A stretch of 61,498 nucleotides of DNA from Candidatus Woesearchaeota archaeon (GCA_016179945.1 JACPCE010000004.1:1-61498); one strand, 5' to 3'. Shown: positions 4,909-61,350, counted from the stretch's first letter. Translations and numbers: made by a program. The notes: generated by a model not told the origin, from the letters alone.

Positions 4909-5592
4909 ATGATAACAAATCCAGATTTAAAAGAATTACACAGACTTTTAGCTAGATCTGAAGAATTTATTGAAATTAATGATGCTAAAAATGTTAAATT
5001 AAATATACCTGACTTAGGATTTTCTACATTATATTGCAGAAAAAGAGATCATTTAGTTGGCAGTGGAAAAAAGAGGTATTTGGTTGTTTTGATAGACAAA
5101 GAATTTCCTAATTTTAAAAGTGAAAAACATGTTGAATCATTTCTAAATTATGCTAGAGAATTAAATGAGAAGGGATATTATTTTGCTCCAGTATTAAAAA
5201 GCCCACCCTATTTAAGACATGATGGAAGAAGCAAATCAAGAGTTGAAATAGGTGATAAAAGATCAAGACATGTCAGAACTAAAGACATAGAAAGATTATT
5301 GATTAGAACTACAGAAAACAACTTGACTTATTATGTTCCTAATAGTGAAGAAAGCAAATTAATTTTAGTTTCTTTTGCATCTGTTCAATCTAGTTATGAT
5401 CATTTACCAGATGATCATGGAGCTAGAGTATTTGCTCCTGATGGAAGAACTTTGGAAAGAAGCATGCGTTATGATATAAAAACAAAATTTTATGACAGAA
5501 TTACTTTTGTTCCTGTTAAATCTAGAGGAAATTTAGCTATTGCTGCTAATAAAACAACAACTATTGAAGAAAGTCAACGTAGATTAATTTAG
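4909..5592 (+). CDS. Hypothetical protein
   Basis: 227-aa ORF with TATATAAA about 28 nt upstream. Confidence 0.65.
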   Translation: MITNPDLKELHRLLARSEEFIEINDAKNVKLNIPDLGFSTLYCRKRDHLVGSGKKRYLVVLIDKEFPNFKSEKHVESFLNYARELNEKGYYFAPVLKSPPYLRHDGRSKSRVEIGDKRSRHVRTKDIERLLIRTTENNLTYYVPNSEESKLILVSFASVQSSYDHLPDDHGARVFAPDGRTLERSMRYDIKTKFYDRITFVPVKSRGNLAIAANKTTTIEESQRRLI

Positions 5593-6134
5593 CAGTAATT
5601 TTGCTGGACAAAATAAGCAAGTTGTCTTTTACCTCTGTGAACCCTTGTTTTAACAGCACCAACACTGTCTATTTCTAATATTGTTTTTATTTCATCTATA
5701 TTATAACCAAGAAGTCTTAGTTCTAAAGCCCTACGATTTGTTCCATTTACTTCACTTAAACCATTTTCTAACAGTTCTTGTCTTTCTCTATCCTGTAAAT
5801 AGAATAATTGTGCTGGTTTTACTTTATCATATACTGCGCCTGGCAGATACCCTGTCCTTCCTCTAACATGTCTTCTCTCCTTTTTTAATTTCATTAATGC
5901 AGTATTTTTTGTTACTCTGTATATCCAAGTTTTAAATCTTGATTCTCCTTTAAAATTTCTTAGATTTTTATGTACTGCAAGAAAAACTTCGCTTGTTACA
6001 TCTTCTGCAAGTGTTGGATCTTTTACACAACCAACTGCAATACTATAAACATATCTATAATTATCTTTGTATAAATCTACAAAACTAGAATATTCTAAAC
6101 TTGGATGAATTCTTCTTCCTAATTGTTCTTTCAT
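5589..6134 (-). CDS. Sigma-70 family, ECF-type sigma factor homologue
   Basis: Region 2 AEDVTSEVFL...FKGESRFKTWIYRVTKNTALMKLKK; region 4 GYNIDEI...GAVKTRVHRGKRQL. Confidence 0.88.
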   Translation of the reverse strand: MKEQLGRRIHPSLEYSSFVDLYKDNYRYVYSIAVGCVKDPTLAEDVTSEVFLAVHKNLRNFKGESRFKTWIYRVTKNTALMKLKKERRHVRGRTGYLPGAVYDKVKPAQLFYLQDRERQELLENGLSEVNGTNRRALELRLLGYNIDEIKTILEIDSVGAVKTRVHRGKRQLAYFVQQNYC

Positions 6135-7530: not shown

Positions 7531-7653
7531 GGGGATGTAGTATAACTTGGTTCAGTATAGGGGCCTCCAGTAATGGAAATATGAGCTGTAAAGCGATGAT
7601 ATTATTTTTTGAGAAGAAAGCCTCGGATCAGGGTTCAAATCCCTGCATCCCCA
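7531..7653 (+). tRNA. trnW: tRNA-Trp(CCA) with a 48-nt intron at 37/38 (7571-7618)
   Basis: Acceptor GGGGATG/CATCCCC-A; anticodon stem GGGGC/GCCTC, loop CT-CCA-G^A; T arm CAGGG-TTCAAAT-CCCTG; relaxed BHB (CTCC/GAAG, AAA bulge). Confidence 0.92.
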
Positions 7654-27303: not shown

Positions 27304-28219
27304 TTTTTTATCAATATTAACAACAACCTTTAAATATGAATTCTATTTCCATCTAACTAGTTCATGCATGAAGAAGAGTTATTAGTACTTTTCTAATGTA
27401 ATTATGTGTACTTAATAATTTACATTTTAAGTACGAGAGAGCAAAACCAATAGAACGTAGTGATCTCTATATAAAATTGCGACAATATAAATCCCATTGA
27501 TCCTGTGGGAGATTGCTGCTATTGGGATCCGACTAAGCCATGCAAGTCATAGGGGTAGCAATACCACTGGCATAAGGCTCAGTAACACGTCGATAATTTG
27601 CCCTTAGGTCTGGGAAAACCTCGGGAAACTGAGGCTAAACCTAGATAAGAAAAAGATACTGGAATGTTTTTTTTCTAAAAGGCAACGCCTAAGGATAAGT
27701 CGGCGGCTGATTAGGTTGTTGGTGAGGTAATGGCTCACCAAGCCTAGGATCAGTAGGGGGGATGAGAGTCCTAGCCCCGAGAAGGGCACTGAGATACTGG
27801 CCCTAGCCCTAAGGGGTGCAGCAGGCGCGAAAACTCTGCAATGCACGAAAGTGTGACAGGGGGATCCCAAGTGCTTTGTCTTCGGATAAAGCTTTTATTA
27901 AGTCTAAATAGCTTGGTGAATAAGTGGTGGGTAAGACGGGTGCCAGCCGCCGCGGTAACACCCGCGCCACTAGTGGCAATCACTTTTATTGGGTCTAAAG
28001 CGTCCGTAGCCGGTTTAATAAGTCTCTTGTGAAATTGTTGGGCTTAACCTAACAACGTGCAAGAGAAACTATTAGACTTGAGACTGGGAGGAGGTAGAAG
28101 TATTCTAAGGGTAGCGGTAAAATGTTATAATCCTTGGAGGACTACCAGTGGCGGAGGCGTCTACCTAGAACAGGTCTGACGGTGAGGGACGAAGGCTAGG
28201 GGAGCAAAACGGATTAGAT

Positions 28220-28330
28220 ACAAGAAATTTTCTGAGAGTAAATTTCTGTACAGGCAAGTAAAATTGATCAATAAAAAACTACTTTATTTGTTAAGATGCA
28301 GAAATTAATATGGAAATTTGCTTGCTAAGT
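28220..28330 (+). other. 16S rRNA BHB intron 1 (111 nt, ~E. coli 793/794)
   Basis: Central helix TTAG/CTAA, bulges AT^A and GT^A, inner helix CAAG/CTTG; splicing restores GGATTAGATACCCGAGTAGTCC. Confidence 0.9.
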
Positions 28331-28614
28331 ACCCGAGTAGTCCTAGCAGTAAACTCTGTGAGCTATGTGTTGCACAATCTTAGTGATTGTGCAGTGCCTA
28401 AGCGAAGGTGTTAAGCTCACCACCTGGGAAGTACAGTCGCAAGACCGAAACTTAAAGGAATTGGCGGGGGCTCACTACAAGGGGTGAAGAGTGCGGTTCA
28501 ATTGGATTCCACGCCGGAAATCTCACCAGGGGCGACGGCAATATGAAGGTCAGATTAAAGGTTTTACCTAATGCGCCGAGAGGTGGTGCATGGCCGACGC
28601 CAGCTCGTGCCGTG

Positions 28615-28672
28615 AAATTCCGTTGTAATATTCCAATGAATCGATCAATATAGTTACAACTTGATTCGGTAA
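28615..28672 (+). other. 16S rRNA BHB intron 2 (58 nt, ~E. coli 1079/1080)
   Basis: Central helix GCCG/CGGT, bulges TG^A and AA^A, inner AATT/GATT and GTTGTAA/TTACAAC; splicing restores GCCGTGAGGTGTC. Confidence 0.9.
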
Positions 28673-29220
28673 AGGTGTCACGTTAAGTCGTGCAACGAGC
28701 AAGACCCATATCCGCTTTTACCAGCAGGTACTATGGTACGACTGGGTACAATGCGGAGACTGCCTCCGTAAGGAGGAGGAAGGCGTGGGCAACGTTAGGT
28801 CCGTATGCCCCGAATCTCCTGGGCTACACGCGCTCTGCAATGGTGGAGACAATGGGATGCAACTCCGAAAGGAGAAGCAAATCCTCGAAATTCCATCTTA
28901 GTCTGGATTGAGGGTTGTAATTCACCCTCATGAAACCGGAATCCCTAGTAATCGGGCTTCATTACGGCCCGGTGAATAACGTCCCTGAGCCTTGCACACA
29001 CTGCCCGTCAAACCAACCGAGCATGGCTTAGATGAGATATAGTTTTTTGATTATATCGAATCTGAGTTAAGTAAGGTGGGTTAAGTCGTCACAAGGTATC
29101 CGTAGGGGAACCTGCGGATGGATCACCTCCTTTTTATGATCTTAAACTACTTCTATTGGTGCTCATATTTTATATTCAAATGGGCTCGTAGCTCAGCCCG
29201 GTAGAGCATCTCCCTTGCAT

Positions 29221-32634
<3,414 letters not shown>

Positions 32635-32730
32635 GAATATACAAGAATCTGTGCACCGATTAATTTTTTTCTTTTAATTTTTATATTTTAGAATTTTATT
32701 AGTGAGAACTATAACGAAAGCTTGTTTGAA

Positions 32731-56160: not shown

Positions 56161-56394
56161 TTAATCATATCCACCATCAGAATCAAAACCTTCACTATCG
56201 TCCATATCGTCTTTTTCCATATCCTCATTATCGTCATCATCATCAAGTTTCCAATCTTCATTATCATCACTAACATCCTTACCTTCATCCTCATCTTCTA
56301 TCGGTTTTTTATGATGCTTGTGTTTTGCTGGAGCTCCAAAAAAATAATTACTTGTTTTAATAATTTCCCATTGACTTACTAATCCAATTTCCAT
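56161..56394 (-). CDS. Small Asp-rich low-complexity protein
   Basis: GGAGG SD upstream; highly acidic C-terminus. Confidence 0.6.
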   Translation of the reverse strand: MEIGLVSQWEIIKTSNYFFGAPAKHKHHKKPIEDEDEGKDVSDDNEDWKLDDDDDNEDMEKDDMDDSEGFDSDGGYD

Positions 56395-56490
56395 TTATCT
56401 TCCCTCCTATTTATACAAACATTATTGGCATTATTTAGTTAATTTATTTATATATTTTTTGGTTCTAGGATTTTTATGTAGTATCCTATT

Positions 56491-57183
56491 TTAATGTATT
56501 AATAAGCCATATTTTCCATCTATAGTAGGACCCCTATTTACTCTATCAACCCCTGAATATATTATATGGATTACATTGCCTGGATTTTCATAAGAAACAA
56601 CAAAAACTTCTAATTGATCTGCCAACCTCATAGTTCTCATCTTACTGTTCTTTCTTTTACCTGCACCCCTTAACCATCCAATCATACCATTATAATTAAA
56701 GCCTTTACCATTATCTTCTATTGTTATTATATGGCCTTCATGTCCTTCGTCAATTATCAATCTTACTTCATCTTTACTTCCATATAAAAAAGCATTTTCT
56801 AACAAACCACTAATTAATGCTTTTAATACCGGGGGTGTTCTTTTTGGTCTCAACATCACATATCCAATATCATGCAATTTACTTTCTAATTCTCTTAATT
56901 TTCCTATACTTTGTGGATTTCCAAATCTCAGACTATGTAAGATTTGCTCTCTTCTACTAGCAAGCTCAATGCTTCTTTCCTCTAGAAGCCTACTTACACC
57001 TAATGTATATAGTGAAGGACTGTCATAATTAGCTTCTCTTTGTTCATAAAATCTTGATCTTCTTTCCACATTTGCAGGAAATAAAGATTTTTCTGAATAA
57101 GGTTTTATTACATCAAACAATATTCTATTATTTACACCAACTCTTGCATACATATCACTAAGATTAAGATTTTCAAATGTCAT
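56491..57183 (-). CDS. HATPase_c (RsbW/anti-sigma kinase-like) domain protein
   Basis: N box GLLENAFLYG; G1 box IEDNGKGFN; G2 box appears degenerate. Confidence 0.65.
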   Translation of the reverse strand: MTFENLNLSDMYARVGVNNRILFDVIKPYSEKSLFPANVERRSRFYEQREANYDSPSLYTLGVSRLLEERSIELASRREQILHSLRFGNPQSIGKLRELESKLHDIGYVMLRPKRTPPVLKALISGLLENAFLYGSKDEVRLIIDEGHEGHIITIEDNGKGFNYNGMIGWLRGAGKRKNSKMRTMRLADQLEVFVVSYENPGNVIHIIYSGVDRVNRGPTIDGKYGLLIH

Positions 57184-57280
57184 TTTTCAAATTGATGTTT
57201 TTATGTTTATATACTTTACCATTTTATAGTGGTGATAATTTAGAAAGATTTTTAAATATTTTACTTATTATAAAAACATT

Positions 57281-57889
57281 ATGCCAGGAAAAAAAGAATC
57301 TTTAGAAATAGTACTAAGATATTTTGATGCTGTTTTTGTAGATTCTTCTTTCATGACATATTTAGGAAGAAGTGAAGGATTTTATAGTGTTGATAAAAGA
57401 CTTTTAGACAGAGCGTTAGAAGTATGGAGAGAAAATAGTGGGCTTTTTAGAAGATATAATGAAGAATTAAAAGTTTATACAACAAATGGTATCATACAAG
57501 AATTAAATGAATTTGCACTTGCTTTAGAGGAAGCTTCTTATAAGAAAAAGCAGACATTAAGAGCTAATAAACTAAAAAGTATGTCTGATTTAGTTAAGGA
57601 TACAGCTGATACATTAATAGTTTATCCCTTTAGAGCCTATATTCAAGTTGTCAGATATGATGGAGCTTCTGATAATGATATTTCTTTAATATCTGCTATG
57701 CTGCATTTTTTAGTTGATAACAATCGCAGCACCAGCACAATAATTACTAAAGACAGTGATATAAGCAAAAGTTATGGCCTTACAATATCGGGATTTGATG
57801 AAGGATTGAGAGCTAATATTTCAAGAAGAGGAAAAATTTATTGGTATGATTATAAGCAAAATTTACTAGAAAAAGTAGTTATAAATTAA
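57281..57889 (+). CDS. Divergent PIN-like protein
   Basis: VFVDSSF, YTT.GIIQEL, SDNDISL, IITKDSDI. Confidence 0.6.
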   Translation: MPGKKESLEIVLRYFDAVFVDSSFMTYLGRSEGFYSVDKRLLDRALEVWRENSGLFRRYNEELKVYTTNGIIQELNEFALALEEASYKKKQTLRANKLKSMSDLVKDTADTLIVYPFRAYIQVVRYDGASDNDISLISAMLHFLVDNNRSTSTIITKDSDISKSYGLTISGFDEGLRANISRRGKIYWYDYKQNLLEKVVIN

Positions 57890-57960
57890 GTTTGAGTCTC
57901 ATACGTTCTTACTGTCTGCTATTAAATAGCAAAGGTTCTGTTCATATCATTGACCCAAAC
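57890..57960 (-). ncRNA. Candidate K-turn / C/D-like guide RNA with two segments complementary to 23S rRNA
   Basis: 9-bp terminal stem GTTTGGGTC/GACTCAAAC; AAT-GA / GA K-turn geometry; internal hairpin; guides match 23S 30324-30333 and 30340-30347. Confidence 0.55.
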
Positions 57961-58005
57961 CATTATTGTGCATTAATAAGAAATCAAATAGGTATTTAAT
58001 GTTTA

Positions 58006-58818
58006 CTAAGTTTTAATTTCAAACCATATTAAATAATGATCACTATGCTCTTTATTTATAGATTTGTCTATTCCATAATTAGTAATTTGACTTTTTAAGT
58101 TATCACTAACTATAATTCTATCATAAGCACAGTTTGTTTCAGATACAGTTGTGTCTTCATTATCTTGAATTATCCAGTTCCAATTATCAAATTCATTTTC
58201 TTCTTTGTTATTATAATAAGAACAATCTGCATTCAAATCACCAATAACTGCAGTGTAATCATTATTTTTTACTATTTCATCTAAATAATATAATTCATTT
58301 TTTACATCATCTGGTTTTATATGAATATTAAACAAGGTTAAGTTATAATTATTTAAATTGAATTTTACTTCAATAGGTGGCCTTTCCCACCTATCTAATT
58401 TATCTGGATTGTAATCTTCTATTAATTCAATTTTAACTCCTTTCTTTACTAAAATTCCATATTGTTCTTTTGATATAGTTCTGCCAGCTCTTGTGGAGAT
58501 ATAGCAATTATATTTATCTAAATAAGAACAAAGCTTTGGAAATGCACCTTCTGAAGAATCTCTAATTTCTTGCAAAAATACAATATCATAATTTTTTATT
58601 TTATTAGCATAATAATTCATTAAATCTAAATTACTGGCTTTTGAATGTCCAAATACTTGTAGATTCCAATTTGCTATTTTTATTGTATCTTGATAATTAT
58701 TTATTTGAGGATTTATTTTAACTGCACTGGCTGTTATATTATCTTTTAAATTATCTTTGTAGTAATAAGTAATTAATACTAGAATTAATATTACAAATAA
58801 CACCTTTTTTTTCATCAA
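58006..58818 (-). CDS. Extracellular DNase I-like (EEP-family) nuclease
   Basis: N-terminal TM; ANWNLQVFG, LQEIRD, WERPP, HIKP, GDLNADC, AYDRI, SDHY. Confidence 0.92.
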   Translation of the reverse strand: MMKKKVLFVILILVLITYYYKDNLKDNITASAVKINPQINNYQDTIKIANWNLQVFGHSKASNLDLMNYYANKIKNYDIVFLQEIRDSSEGAFPKLCSYLDKYNCYISTRAGRTISKEQYGILVKKGVKIELIEDYNPDKLDRWERPPIEVKFNLNNYNLTLFNIHIKPDDVKNELYYLDEIVKNNDYTAVIGDLNADCSYYNNKEENEFDNWNWIIQDNEDTTVSETNCAYDRIIVSDNLKSQITNYGIDKSINKEHSDHYLIWFEIKT

Positions 58819-58919
58819 TTTTACTATCTTTATTTAAATTTAATACTTGCCATATTTTGTTGTCTTTTTATAGTAGTAAATTTAGTAAGCTTTATAAAGG
58901 TTTAAAATAGACTTTTTTT

Positions 58920-59444
58920 ATGGATATTGGTGCTTATTTGAGGGCTTTGAAGGCATGTCCTGATCCTGATTTAACTGATAATCTAGGGATTTATGACAAT
59001 TGGCCAATATTATTAGATGTGGATACTAATATCTTTATAGATTATTTAAGGAACTGTGAAAAATATAGTGAAAAATCACAAAATGTAAGCAGAGAAATTG
59101 CTGAGGAAGTTGCTGCAAGTGGTAGATTAAGTGCTGCTAGAATATTAAGGAAAGGGAAGGGGGTTTATTTTGATTATGGCAAAAGACTAGCTAAATTTAG
59201 AGTTTCAAGGGGTTTAATACTTGAATTCTGTAGCAAAGATGAACCACATAGAACAAAACAGTTAGCTAAAGAATATAGAACTACAGTATTACTTCATCCT
59301 TATGCAATGAATGGAAACTGGACAAGAAATTTAGCAGATATTGTTGTTGACATTGGTGAGTATGCTCAAAGAAGCAAGGTTGGTCTTTGTTTTCCAAAAT
59401 CTATAGGTTCTAAAAATAAGGAGGTTGTTTATTACGAACCTTAA
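58920..59444 (+). CDS. Hypothetical protein
   Basis: 174-aa ORF, 2 nt upstream of the LysM peptidase gene. Confidence 0.6.
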   Translation: MDIGAYLRALKACPDPDLTDNLGIYDNWPILLDVDTNIFIDYLRNCEKYSEKSQNVSREIAEEVAASGRLSAARILRKGKGVYFDYGKRLAKFRVSRGLILEFCSKDEPHRTKQLAKEYRTTVLLHPYAMNGNWTRNLADIVVDIGEYAQRSKVGLCFPKSIGSKNKEVVYYEP

Positions 59445-59446
59445 AA

Positions 59447-60487
59447 ATGAGAAAACTAATTCCTTTTATTGTTGGATTGTGTACTGTTGTTGGATTAAGT
59501 TGTGGAAGGACAAGTATTACTAGAAAATCTACAGGAGATGGCGGAGGTTCACAAGCAGAAAAAAACTATTACATAGTAAAGAAAGGCGGCAGTATAGATG
59601 ATATTGCTAAAAAAACAGAAATTCCTGCATGGTCTATATTAAATTGCAATCCTGAATTAGATGAAAATACAAAATTCGGACCTGGAGAAAAAATTAAACT
59701 TTATGAAAAATATTATGAGATTCAACCTAATGATACATTATATGGAATTGCTTTACAAAATCATGCAAATTATGGCGCTTTAATAGATCTTAATAATATA
59801 GAAAATCCTGATTTAATATTAGCTGGCGATAAATTGAGAATTCCTTGTCCTGGAAAAAAATCAAAACATAAATTGGAAAGAGAGGAAAAAAATCATGCAT
59901 ATATAGAAAGAAAAGAACCAAGAAAAACTGGCTATGTTGTTTTTCCTAGCGGCTTAAAACTTCAAATTGTCAATGATCCTAAATTAACTAGGAAAGGAAA
60001 AGAATTTTATGATCCAAGAAGCTCTGGTAATCCATTATTTAAAGTTGAAGTTAAAGATTTAGGAAGGGCTGTTTCTAGACATTTTACTTTAGGTGACTTT
60101 CTTGAAATACATGTGCCTAGATTGGAATCACCCAATTATAAACTAAAACTTAATGGCGATGAGTATTTTGCTTATGGACGTTTAGATCCTGATTTTGTAG
60201 GAAGATTAGAAAAAACTAGGACTTGTGTAGGTGAACCTATAGAAGTAGACTCAGGTTATAGACCTTGGGGTTATCACAAAAGGATTTATCGAGATATATA
60301 TGGAAAAATGGAAACAAAGAAGAGTTTACACCCTTCAGGTATGGCAGCTGATATTTCTTCAAGAAGCACTAGAAGATTAAATAGATGTGTTGCTGATATA
60401 TTTAATAATAGTGGTATTGGCACTTATGATGATGAAGGTTTTGTGCATGTAGATAATAGGAAAGGAAAGGCTCGCTGGTCATTATGA
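59447..60487 (+). CDS. Lipoprotein with two LysM domains and a peptidase M15-type domain
   Basis: Lipobox GLSC; LysM YIVKKGG...IA and YEIQPNDTL.GIA...N.I.NPD.I..G..L.IP; SGYR, SLH..G.AADI, GIGTY...FVHVD.R...ARW. Confidence 0.9.
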   Translation: MRKLIPFIVGLCTVVGLSCGRTSITRKSTGDGGGSQAEKNYYIVKKGGSIDDIAKKTEIPAWSILNCNPELDENTKFGPGEKIKLYEKYYEIQPNDTLYGIALQNHANYGALIDLNNIENPDLILAGDKLRIPCPGKKSKHKLEREEKNHAYIERKEPRKTGYVVFPSGLKLQIVNDPKLTRKGKEFYDPRSSGNPLFKVEVKDLGRAVSRHFTLGDFLEIHVPRLESPNYKLKLNGDEYFAYGRLDPDFVGRLEKTRTCVGEPIEVDSGYRPWGYHKRIYRDIYGKMETKKSLHPSGMAADISSRSTRRLNRCVADIFNNSGIGTYDDEGFVHVDNRKGKARWSL

Positions 60488-60527
60488 AAACAGAATTTAA
60501 ATATAATAAGATTAGGAGAAAGAAAAT

Positions 60528-61067
60528 ATGGTAAAAATAAAAATTAAAGGAAATGAAATTGATGTTATCTTTACTACTAATTCAGCTTCTAGGTATGCAA
60601 CACTTTTTAGAAATAAAATATTTTTCTCTTTGAAAAAAATTGGTGTTTCCCAGGATTATATTAAATTAAAGGAAGAAGTATTTCCTATAAGAAAATCAGG
60701 AGCTGAAGTTTACTGGTACTTAAATGGTTTTAATTGCTATTATAGTTATAATAGACAAGAAAAATATGTTGATAATTTGCAAATTATATCAAAACTTATT
60801 GATGCGGAAGTAAACAAAATATTGGAAGGAAGTAAGAATTTTGAGGAATTTCTAAATGATTTTATAGAAGATGATTATTTAATTGAAAAAAGAAAAGAAG
60901 CTAGGCAATTTTTGGGTTTAGAAGAAAACGAGAATAATATTGAAATTATAAATAAACAATATAAGAAAATGGCAAAAGAATTTCATCCAGATACGGAAAA
61001 TGGAAGCACTGAAAAATTTAAGAAATTAAATGAAGCTCATAAAATTCTAAGAAAGGAACTTGAATAA
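60528..61067 (+). CDS. Protein with C-terminal J domain
   Basis: YKKMAKEFHPD...FKKLNEAH.IL. Confidence 0.85.
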   Translation: MVKIKIKGNEIDVIFTTNSASRYATLFRNKIFFSLKKIGVSQDYIKLKEEVFPIRKSGAEVYWYLNGFNCYYSYNRQEKYVDNLQIISKLIDAEVNKILEGSKNFEEFLNDFIEDDYLIEKRKEARQFLGLEENENNIEIINKQYKKMAKEFHPDTENGSTEKFKKLNEAHKILRKELE

Positions 61068-61350
61068 AATGAAAGAACATCCAAGAATTTCTACTATGAT
61101 TAAATTTTATAGAGATGAACAAAAAGTTTGTCCTTTTATGAGTCCTTATATCACACAATTTGTTTTAGTTCAAGAAAATTATACTAGATCTTATATAGCT
61201 AATCCTTTATTATCTTGGGTGAAATTTAAAGATCTAAAAGTTTTAAGTTATGTTTGGGAAAAAGATCCTAGATTTGAAGATGAAAGAAAAACTGCAATTA
61301 AGATGTTTGGCGATCTTGCACATATTTTATATGAAGATCAAAACAATTAA
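61060..61350 (+). CDS. Hypothetical protein
   Basis: Short ORF; likely ATG at 61069. Confidence 0.5.
   Translation: MNKMKEHPRISTMIKFYRDEQKVCPFMSPYITQFVLVQENYTRSYIANPLLSWVKFKDLKVLSYVWEKDPRFEDERKTAIKMFGDLAHILYEDQNN

Follow-up and report, generated by a model that had tools for sequence, protein, structure and literature searches.

The window analysed here, a stretch of 61,498 nucleotides, is a whole contig of a 782-kb genome in 27 contigs that is 74% complete with 0.4% contamination. About 1 kb from one end of this contig, among orphan ORFs, lies a gene (P0001) whose product is predicted to combine a signal peptide, two LysM domains and a zinc peptidase domain of the M15/LAS type (Table 1). 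The orphan ORF immediately upstream may be co-transcribed with it. This orphan has no match in Pfam, NCBIfam or PHROG; its best Atlas score, 0.80, is noise of a size that shuffled proteins also reach; and it was found in none of the homologue loci that were fetched, where no conserved link to the LysM–M15 gene was found. With neither a family match nor conserved linkage behind it, an immunity or partner role for the orphan was rejected as unsupported.

The last 5 kb of the window (56491-61350) may represent a variable region. Its ORFs are lineage-specific or only weakly annotated: besides two orphans and a further one of 96 aa, the stretch has an HATPase-like ORF, a DnaJ-domain protein and an exported nuclease of the Exo_endo_phos type.

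Table 1. Features of the LysM–M15 gene and of the sequence upstream of it (window coordinates)
Feature	Position	Strand	Remarks
Putative promoter, TATA-like box TTTATAAA	58891..58898	+	About 25 nt upstream of the orphan ATG; such strings are common at 28% GC
Upstream orphan ORF, 174 aa	58920..59444	+	Stop ends 2 nt before the LysM–M15 ATG
LysM–LysM–M15 gene (P0001)	59447..60487	+	ATG to TAA, 346 aa
Signal peptide with permissive lipobox V-G-L-S-C19 at its end	59447..59503	+	Sequence read directly; residues 9-36 low-confidence in the model
LysM1, degenerate (about residues 42-84)	59570..59698	+	20 bits, E 6.5e-4; pLDDT above 90
LysM2, canonical (about residues 90-133)	59714..59845	+	48 bits; matches 4xcm LysM domain
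Lys/Glu-rich disordered linker (residues 135-159)	59849..59923	+	pLDDT below 50 at residues 139-158
M15/LAS zinc peptidase domain (residues 160-346)	59924..60484	+	Pfam, alignment, fold, profile
Codons H295 to D302 (S-x-H-x2-G-x-A-x-D), Zn ligands 1 and 2	60329..60352	+	Invariant in 23/23; aligned to 1lbu SRHMYGHAAD
Codons H334-V-D336, Zn ligand 3 and invariant Asp	60446..60454	+	Invariant in 23/23; H334 is the last His of the 1lbu match

Domain organisation of the LysM–M15 protein

The N-terminal part of the protein reads MRKLIPFIVGLCTVVGLSC. Cys19 passes a permissive, PROSITE PS51257-like expression and fails the strict rule [LVI][ASTVI][GAS]C because the box is G-L-S-C, so that the lipobox of the original prediction stands in its permissive form and falls by the stricter one. 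An AF2 model of the protein, built on an alignment of 23 sequences whose members are 26–39% identical to the window's protein, has a mean pLDDT of 85.2. Disorder in the model is limited to residues 1-3, 9-36 and 139-158, which correspond to the signal peptide and stalk and to the inter-domain linker.

The Pfam LysM profile (PF01476 / CBM50) matches two stretches of the chain with 60.7 bits against a cut-off of 20.9. When the repeats are scored singly in a genome-wide LysM search, the second lies well above this cut-off and the first just under it (Table 1). The spore-cortex enzyme SleL/YaaH (4s3k) matches both repeats jointly over residues 41-144. In fold comparison with VIA-align, the LysM domain of 4xcm superimposes with Z 9.0 and an rmsd of 0.8 Å for 46 residues, and DSSP assigns the succession E-H-H-E, that is, beta–alpha–alpha–beta, to both repeats of the model. 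All 12 of the closest homologues with LysM conserve C67 and C134, and a disulfide between them may tie the two repeats together.

The assignment of the C-terminal part to the M15 peptidases is marginal by Pfam. Peptidase_M15_3 (PF08291) matches residues 251-336 with 24.3 bits, just past its cut-off of 23.2; close homologues reach 27–39 bits, and Peptidase_M15_2/DUF882 (PF05951) gives 19.6 bits, under its cut-off of 27. The call is rescued by fold comparison and by two profile matches. When the model was compared by VIA-align with 48,161 chains, the best solved match was 1lbu, the Zn D-Ala-D-Ala carboxypeptidase of Streptomyces albus, with Z 10.5 and an rmsd of 2.4 Å for 115 residues (model residues 168-346), which places the modelled domain in the Hedgehog/DD-peptidase fold. 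LysM domains come next at Z about 9, and Hedgehog N-domains, LysB4, Ply500, VanX, VanXY, VanY and LdcB are found at Z 5–6.7. A profile of the catalytic region of the family retrieves 1lbu at E 8.1e-9, with the motif S-R-H-x2-G-x-A-A-D and the final His aligned, followed by ChiX, LysECD7, the RB49 L-Ala-D-Glu peptidase, VanY and LdcB. The protein also matches phrog_894, annotated as 'endolysin', at E 1.3e-12. LysM matches dominate a Foldseek search with the whole model; the catalytic match comes from VIA-align and from the catalytic-only profile.

The zinc ligands H295, D302 and H334 are invariant in all 23 aligned sequences, as are R245, Y271, R272, Y276, G298, D336 and W344. Both the pair of LysM domains and the intact H, D, H ligand set that had been read from the sequence at the outset are thus confirmed. 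Ahead of its catalytic core the M15 domain bears an N-terminal extension of roughly 55 residues with the motif EFYDPxxSGNPL. The protein scores 27.3 bits with the MepK LD-endopeptidase equivalog (NF053624), whose cut-off is 185. Because the M15_3 match is marginal and the MepK score so far under its threshold, bond specificity is not transferable from either family.

Archaeal origin and distribution of the gene

The contig that carries the LysM–M15 gene also bears archaeal 16S and 23S rRNA genes and encodes archaeal-type S24e, Rpb7, ELP3 and TrmB. The gene has a GC content of 0.32 and a GC3 of 0.138; the corresponding ranges for six further genes of the contig are 0.30–0.33 and 0.15–0.19. Short contigs from four DNA runs tile the region with zero differing letters, and pieces from two of the runs (X3 and X4) bridge the junction between the orphan and the gene; the four runs belong to one groundwater study, and X1 may be the source sample. 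A contig from X2 that seemed to skip 56196-58590 was discounted as too weak, having just 21 letters on its shorter side. The neighbouring ORFs carry no PHROG sign of a provirus: five of the six lack any PHROG match, and the DnaJ-domain ORF matches only PHROGs of unknown function. From the archaeal rRNA genes on the contig, the matching composition and the archaeal-labelled homologues described below, we conclude that the gene is native to the archaeon. A chimeric contig had been named beforehand as one circumstance that would refute the proposal; the rRNA genes, the composition, the tiling and the contigs of the homologues all fit an archaeal genome.

Some other elements of the window are of separate interest. 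The 16S match (27490-29131) spans 1642 nt against a model of 1478 positions and the 23S match (29540-32640) spans 3101 nt against 2987 positions, which suggests insertions in both rRNA genes. An Rfam tRNA match at 7531-7653 (+) extends over 123 nt with 45.7 bits and is probably an intron-containing archaeal tRNA; ARAGORN finds no tRNA in the window. At 5589-6134 (-) there is a sigma-70-like ORF, with region 2 at 60 bits and region 4 at 21.6 bits; sigma-70 factors have already been described for Woesearchaeota (PMC8204110). This ORF and the giant SLT protein described below, both typical of the lineage, are, with the taxon labels of the LysM–M15 homologues, the grounds for placing the genome in DPANN among the Woese- and Pacearchaeota.

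Homologues of the full length are few. A word search of 5.8 billion proteins returned only five of the same length, at 33–40% identity. An exhaustive search with residues 150-346 gave 413 representatives at E <= 1e-3, 104 at E <= 1e-10 and nine at E <= 1e-30. Among 41 family representatives that were scanned for domains, nine bear LysM and are 327–378 aa long; many of the others are long proteins in which the domain is joined to VanY, NlpC/P60, glucosaminidase, Amidase_2, PG_binding_1 or OmpA. In a quick maximum-likelihood tree, a branch with 100% SH-aLRT divides the 95 domain rows into a side of 44 rows, which includes all eight archaeal-labelled rows, and a side of 51 rows, which includes all three bacterial-labelled rows and consists mostly of domains in proteins of 500–1900 aa. 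Identical domains were merged before the tree was built, so that loci L004, L009, L011, L013 and L017-L019 have no rows of their own. The phylogeny called for in the original prediction sets the archaeal-labelled rows apart from the bacterial-labelled ones. Labels obtained after the tree was made identify three further members of the 44-row side (P0041, P0115 and P0120) as Nanoarchaeota. Taxon names were available for seven of the 30 clusters looked up, and all seven are Woesearchaeota, Nanoarchaeia or Nanoarchaeota.

A search of species-representative genomes with an alignment of the 12 closest sequences gave seven full-length matches, all on archaeal-labelled contigs, two of them labelled 'uncultured Methanosarcinales'. 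Six further matches cover the catalytic domain only and fall in Actinomycetota (three loci), Planctomycetota, Vicinamibacterales and Flavihumibacter. The neighbours of the archaeal homologues are ordinary chromosomal genes (RadA, Lhr, archaeal-type PEP carboxylase), and in three of the loci there is a divergent malic enzyme gene; none of the ORFs flanking the gene in the window was found in the homologue loci fetched. On viral contigs, 26 of 27 loci match only residues from about 236 to 346, a generic core of about 100 residues, and the remaining one matches residues 163-336 at 27% identity.

Within the archaeal order the M15 domain occurs in three of 41 genomes, the present one counted, all of one genus. 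One congener (G002) has, next to the gene for ribosomal protein S11, a version of 207 aa (L004:1492-2115) in which a signal peptide precedes the M15 domain and LysM is missing. In the other (G001), the same gene, on contig C27, is broken up into two overlapping ORFs, one of 123 and one of 100 aa (L005:1221-1842 (-)), through either a frameshift or an assembly error. At the syntenic site of the present genome, on contig C24, no S11-adjacent M15 copy was found. In a wider sample of the phylum, 16 of 401 genomes match the M15 profile, 12 of them strongly. The LysM–M15 gene can therefore be regarded as accessory and rare, and of sufficient age to have acquired native composition; its rarity among close relatives and across the phylum argues against a core symbiosis gene.

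What the clade has in common is predicted export. When the N-termini of 27 of its members were inspected by eye and by regular expression, each of the 27 proved to be of a hydrophobic, a lipobox or a twin-arginine kind. A lipobox-like motif occurs in four of them and the others have cleavable or twin-arginine signals, so that tethering would be particular to the window's protein and a few others.

Lipoprotein machinery and wall-related genes elsewhere in the genome

The genome encodes a bacterial-type Lgt (contig C11, 9315-10025; L022:1501-2211), which scores 218.8 bits with PF01790 and exceeds the TIGR00544 equivalog cut-off (162.2 against 118.9). Comparison with Escherichia coli Lgt (5azb) gives E 7.4e-26, with the GRxGNF and RHPxQxY motifs aligned. 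Across the archaeal order, Lgt (PF01790) is present in 39 of 41 genomes and LspA (PF01252) in 38 of 41, that is, in 38 of the 40 relatives of the present genome, both congeners included; LspA was not found in the present, 74% complete genome itself. Among 14 control genomes, two of them archaeal, Lgt and LspA match only the ten bacteria. The lipobox expression is passed by 32 ORFs of the genome, and in many of these the start is of the classic MKK...L-x-[AG]-C kind.

A 2025 paper (PMC12462473) states that archaeal homologues of Lgt and Lsp are unknown, and the occurrence of both in this order may be newer than the wall-hydrolase finding itself. It bears on the anchoring of surface proteins in archaea with bacterial-like lipid genes.

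A second protein with wall-directed domains is encoded on another contig of the genome (C17:35668-42393 (-); L021:2669-9394 (-)). This ORF of 2241 aa has an N-terminal hydrophobic segment and, towards its C-terminus, an SLT domain (54.9 bits) and a Peptidase_M23 domain (74 bits); the flanking ORFs of 678 and 420 aa have no Pfam match. SLT is found in 210 of the 401 phylum genomes sampled, a tally that takes in the unpublished genome G266. It is co-present in 12 of the 16 genomes that match M15 and in 10 of the 12 strong ones, a mild excess among related genomes that are not independent. A separate ORF of 164 aa on C24 (4111-4605; L023:1429-1923) matches NlpC/P60 at 57 bits. It lies among ribosomal protein genes and has no signal peptide, and it was accordingly set aside as unlikely to be a secreted wall hydrolase. 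A search of the genome for Amidase_2 found none.

Signs of murein synthesis are lacking where we looked for them. Mur_ligase_M was not found in the present genome, a result that is weak taken singly because the genome is incomplete. A stronger result is that the SEDS polymerase was found in none of the 41 genomes of the order, 25 of which are at least 90% complete. The two findings together make it unlikely that the protein serves to remodel a wall of the archaeon's own.

Proposed function and relation to known systems

The peptidoglycan-targeting role put forward in the original prediction is supported as far as domains and fold go: every sequence and fold test that was run indicates a wall hydrolase, in a genuine archaeal genome that encodes SLT and M23 domains elsewhere and belongs to an order with no SEDS polymerase detected in 41 genomes. 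The further proposal of a bacterial partner is not new. Peptidoglycan hydrolases have already led others to propose that Woese-, Pace- and Nanoarchaeota have partners or targets among bacteria (PMC8204110, PMC9723730, PMC12352652). For Woese- and Pacearchaeota, Castelle et al. (2021) report giant murein-transglycosylase proteins together with sigma-70 factors, and they raise the question of bacterial hosts for DPANN archaea (PMC8204110); a predatory way of life has been proposed for Woesearchaeota by Vigneron et al. (2022), who based it on GH23 genes (PMC9723730). The bacterial-partner idea is thus a published hypothesis; the LysM–M15 protein adds a well-defined new member to this class of proteins and accords with the published view that archaea of this type live in association with bacteria or at their expense. 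Among the best-matching papers on DPANN taxa, we found no mention of M15 or of a carboxypeptidase.

We infer the activity, bond specificity, lipidation and ecological role of the protein as follows. It is likely to be an extracellular, LysM-targeted, Zn-dependent peptidase that acts on murein peptides, and to judge from its N-terminus it is probably lipid-tethered. After Sec export, Cys19 would be lipidated by the genome's bacterial-type Lgt, which would leave the enzyme tethered by a flexible linker on the outer face of the archaeal membrane. The LysM pair would dock on murein glycan strands, the GlcNAc-containing glycan being most likely bacterial peptidoglycan. The H295/D302/H334 zinc site would then hydrolyse a bond outside the cell, most likely in the stem peptide or cross-link of peptidoglycan, in the manner of a DD- or LD-carboxypeptidase or endopeptidase. 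Together with the 2241-aa SLT and M23 surface protein, the enzyme would make up a toolkit for cutting murein, carried by an organism that does not build murein itself, for use on bacteria that it touches, whether host, prey or competitor, or on wall debris. To our knowledge, a bacterial host has yet to be demonstrated for any DPANN archaeon. The tether and the SLT and M23 protein favour action on living bacteria; scavenging of debris is in equally good accord with the nuclease and the GH113 enzyme of the window and with the patchiness of the gene.

A bolder extension can be offered tentatively. Lgt and LspA would constitute a complete bacterial-type lipoprotein pathway in a DPANN order, and would tether the LysM–M15 protein beside the SLT and M23 protein as a contact-dependent apparatus for opening the wall of a bacterial host. 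Were this so, archaea would possess true Lgt and Lsp homologues, contrary to the 2025 statement, and an archaeal-specific M15 clade (44 of the 95 tree rows, the labelled rows all Woese- or Nanoarchaeota) would have diversified for cross-domain episymbiosis.

A purely nutritional role seems rather unlikely. The same enzyme would then trim free muropeptides or the debris of dead walls in groundwater and supply amino acids to an auxotrophic archaeon of small genome, with no specific living partner. The original prediction had pointed to a secreted DNase, a GH113-like enzyme and adhesins in the window as compatible with scavenging, and we did find a PKD-repeat protein, a GH113 protein (220 bits) and an Exo_endo_phos nuclease whose N-terminus has a hydrophobic segment; the last two would be further exported scavenging enzymes. 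An accessory nutrient gene would be expected to be as patchy as this one is among its close relatives, and most members of the clade have cleavable or Tat signals and not anchors. Against this, a lipid tether and the giant SLT and M23 surface protein would be better suited to action on contact.

It is improbable that the substrate is something other than bacterial murein, with LysM binding chitin, an archaeal host glycan or pseudomurein and the peptidase cutting a different peptide. LysM does bind chitin and other GlcNAc polymers besides murein (PMC12352652), and many DPANN archaea have archaeal hosts (PMC8204110). However, all the solved relatives of the catalytic domain that we found act on murein peptides or D-Ala-D-Ala, and in bacterial relatives the domain is fused to murein-specific modules. 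The same genome moreover encodes an SLT domain, the chemistry of which requires MurNAc. As for pseudomurein, Strock et al. count just two peptidoglycan-hydrolase homologues in the classes that make it (PMC12352652).

A catalytically inert adhesin, in which fold and ligands are kept and the bacterial wall is bound for attachment only, has very little to recommend it. Attachment is one of the roles proposed for murein-binding proteins of DPANN archaea (Castelle 2021, PMC8204110), but the zinc ligands and R272, Y271, Y276 and D336 are invariant over 23 sequences that are 26–39% identical to the window's protein, and such invariance among divergent sequences argues for selection on catalysis. That a bacterial or phage gene was mis-assembled or mis-binned into an archaeal contig is highly improbable: the nearby contig end, the stretch of orphan ORFs and the bacterial type of the family would suit this explanation, but the contig carries archaeal rRNA genes, GC and GC3 resemble those of the neighbours, the local gene order recurs in tiling pieces from four runs of the one study, seven independent contigs with archaeal labels bear homologues, both congeners have a relative beside S11, no PHROG match in the neighbouring ORFs points to a provirus, and viral contigs mostly hold just the generic core.

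The likely murein peptidase can be set beside several known systems. Its best structural and profile match is 1lbu, which we take to be MEROPS M15A and with which it shares the S-x-H-x2-G-x-A-x-D motif and the final His. The two proteins are only about 19% identical, however; 1lbu has a different N-terminal wall-binding domain in place of LysM, and the EFYDPxxSGNPL extension belongs to the window's protein. The M15 endolysins of phages (phrog_894, Ply500, LysB4, LysECD7) resemble it in the phrog_894 match and in fold matches at Z 5–6.5, but the LysM–M15 gene lacks a viral genome context, and nearly all the viral loci match just the C-terminal core. From Pfam M15_3 and DUF882/MepK it is separated by marginal scores and by a MepK equivalog score under the cut-off.

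Closest in overall design are the archaeal modular peptidoglycan hydrolases reported by Strock et al. (2025) in 175 of 3,706 archaeal genomes, with prominence in Nanoarchaeota (PMC12352652). These too are archaeal proteins in which a signal peptide is combined with one domain for wall binding and another for catalysis, and LysM and Peptidase_M15_3 are both on the domain list of that study (S10 Table, PMC12352652). The enzymes tested there differ in being haloarchaeal and M23/zoocin-like, two of which kill bacteria, and the term 'M15' is absent from the main text (PMC12352652). The giant transglycosylase proteins of Woese- and Pacearchaeota (fam00969, PMC8204110; PMC9723730) come from the same type of lineage and share the proposed target, bacterial murein; the 2241-aa SLT and M23 protein resembles this family of Castelle 2021 (PMC8204110). 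The LysM–M15 protein, by contrast, is predicted to cut a peptide and not a glycan bond, is small and LysM-targeted, and is much rarer (16 of 401 genomes, against 210 of 401 for SLT). Being small, soluble and easily expressed, with clear catalytic residues, it is a more tractable test object than transglycosylases of 2000–3000 aa, and its binding and bond specificity could indicate the wall chemotype, and hence the bacteria, on which these groundwater archaea act.
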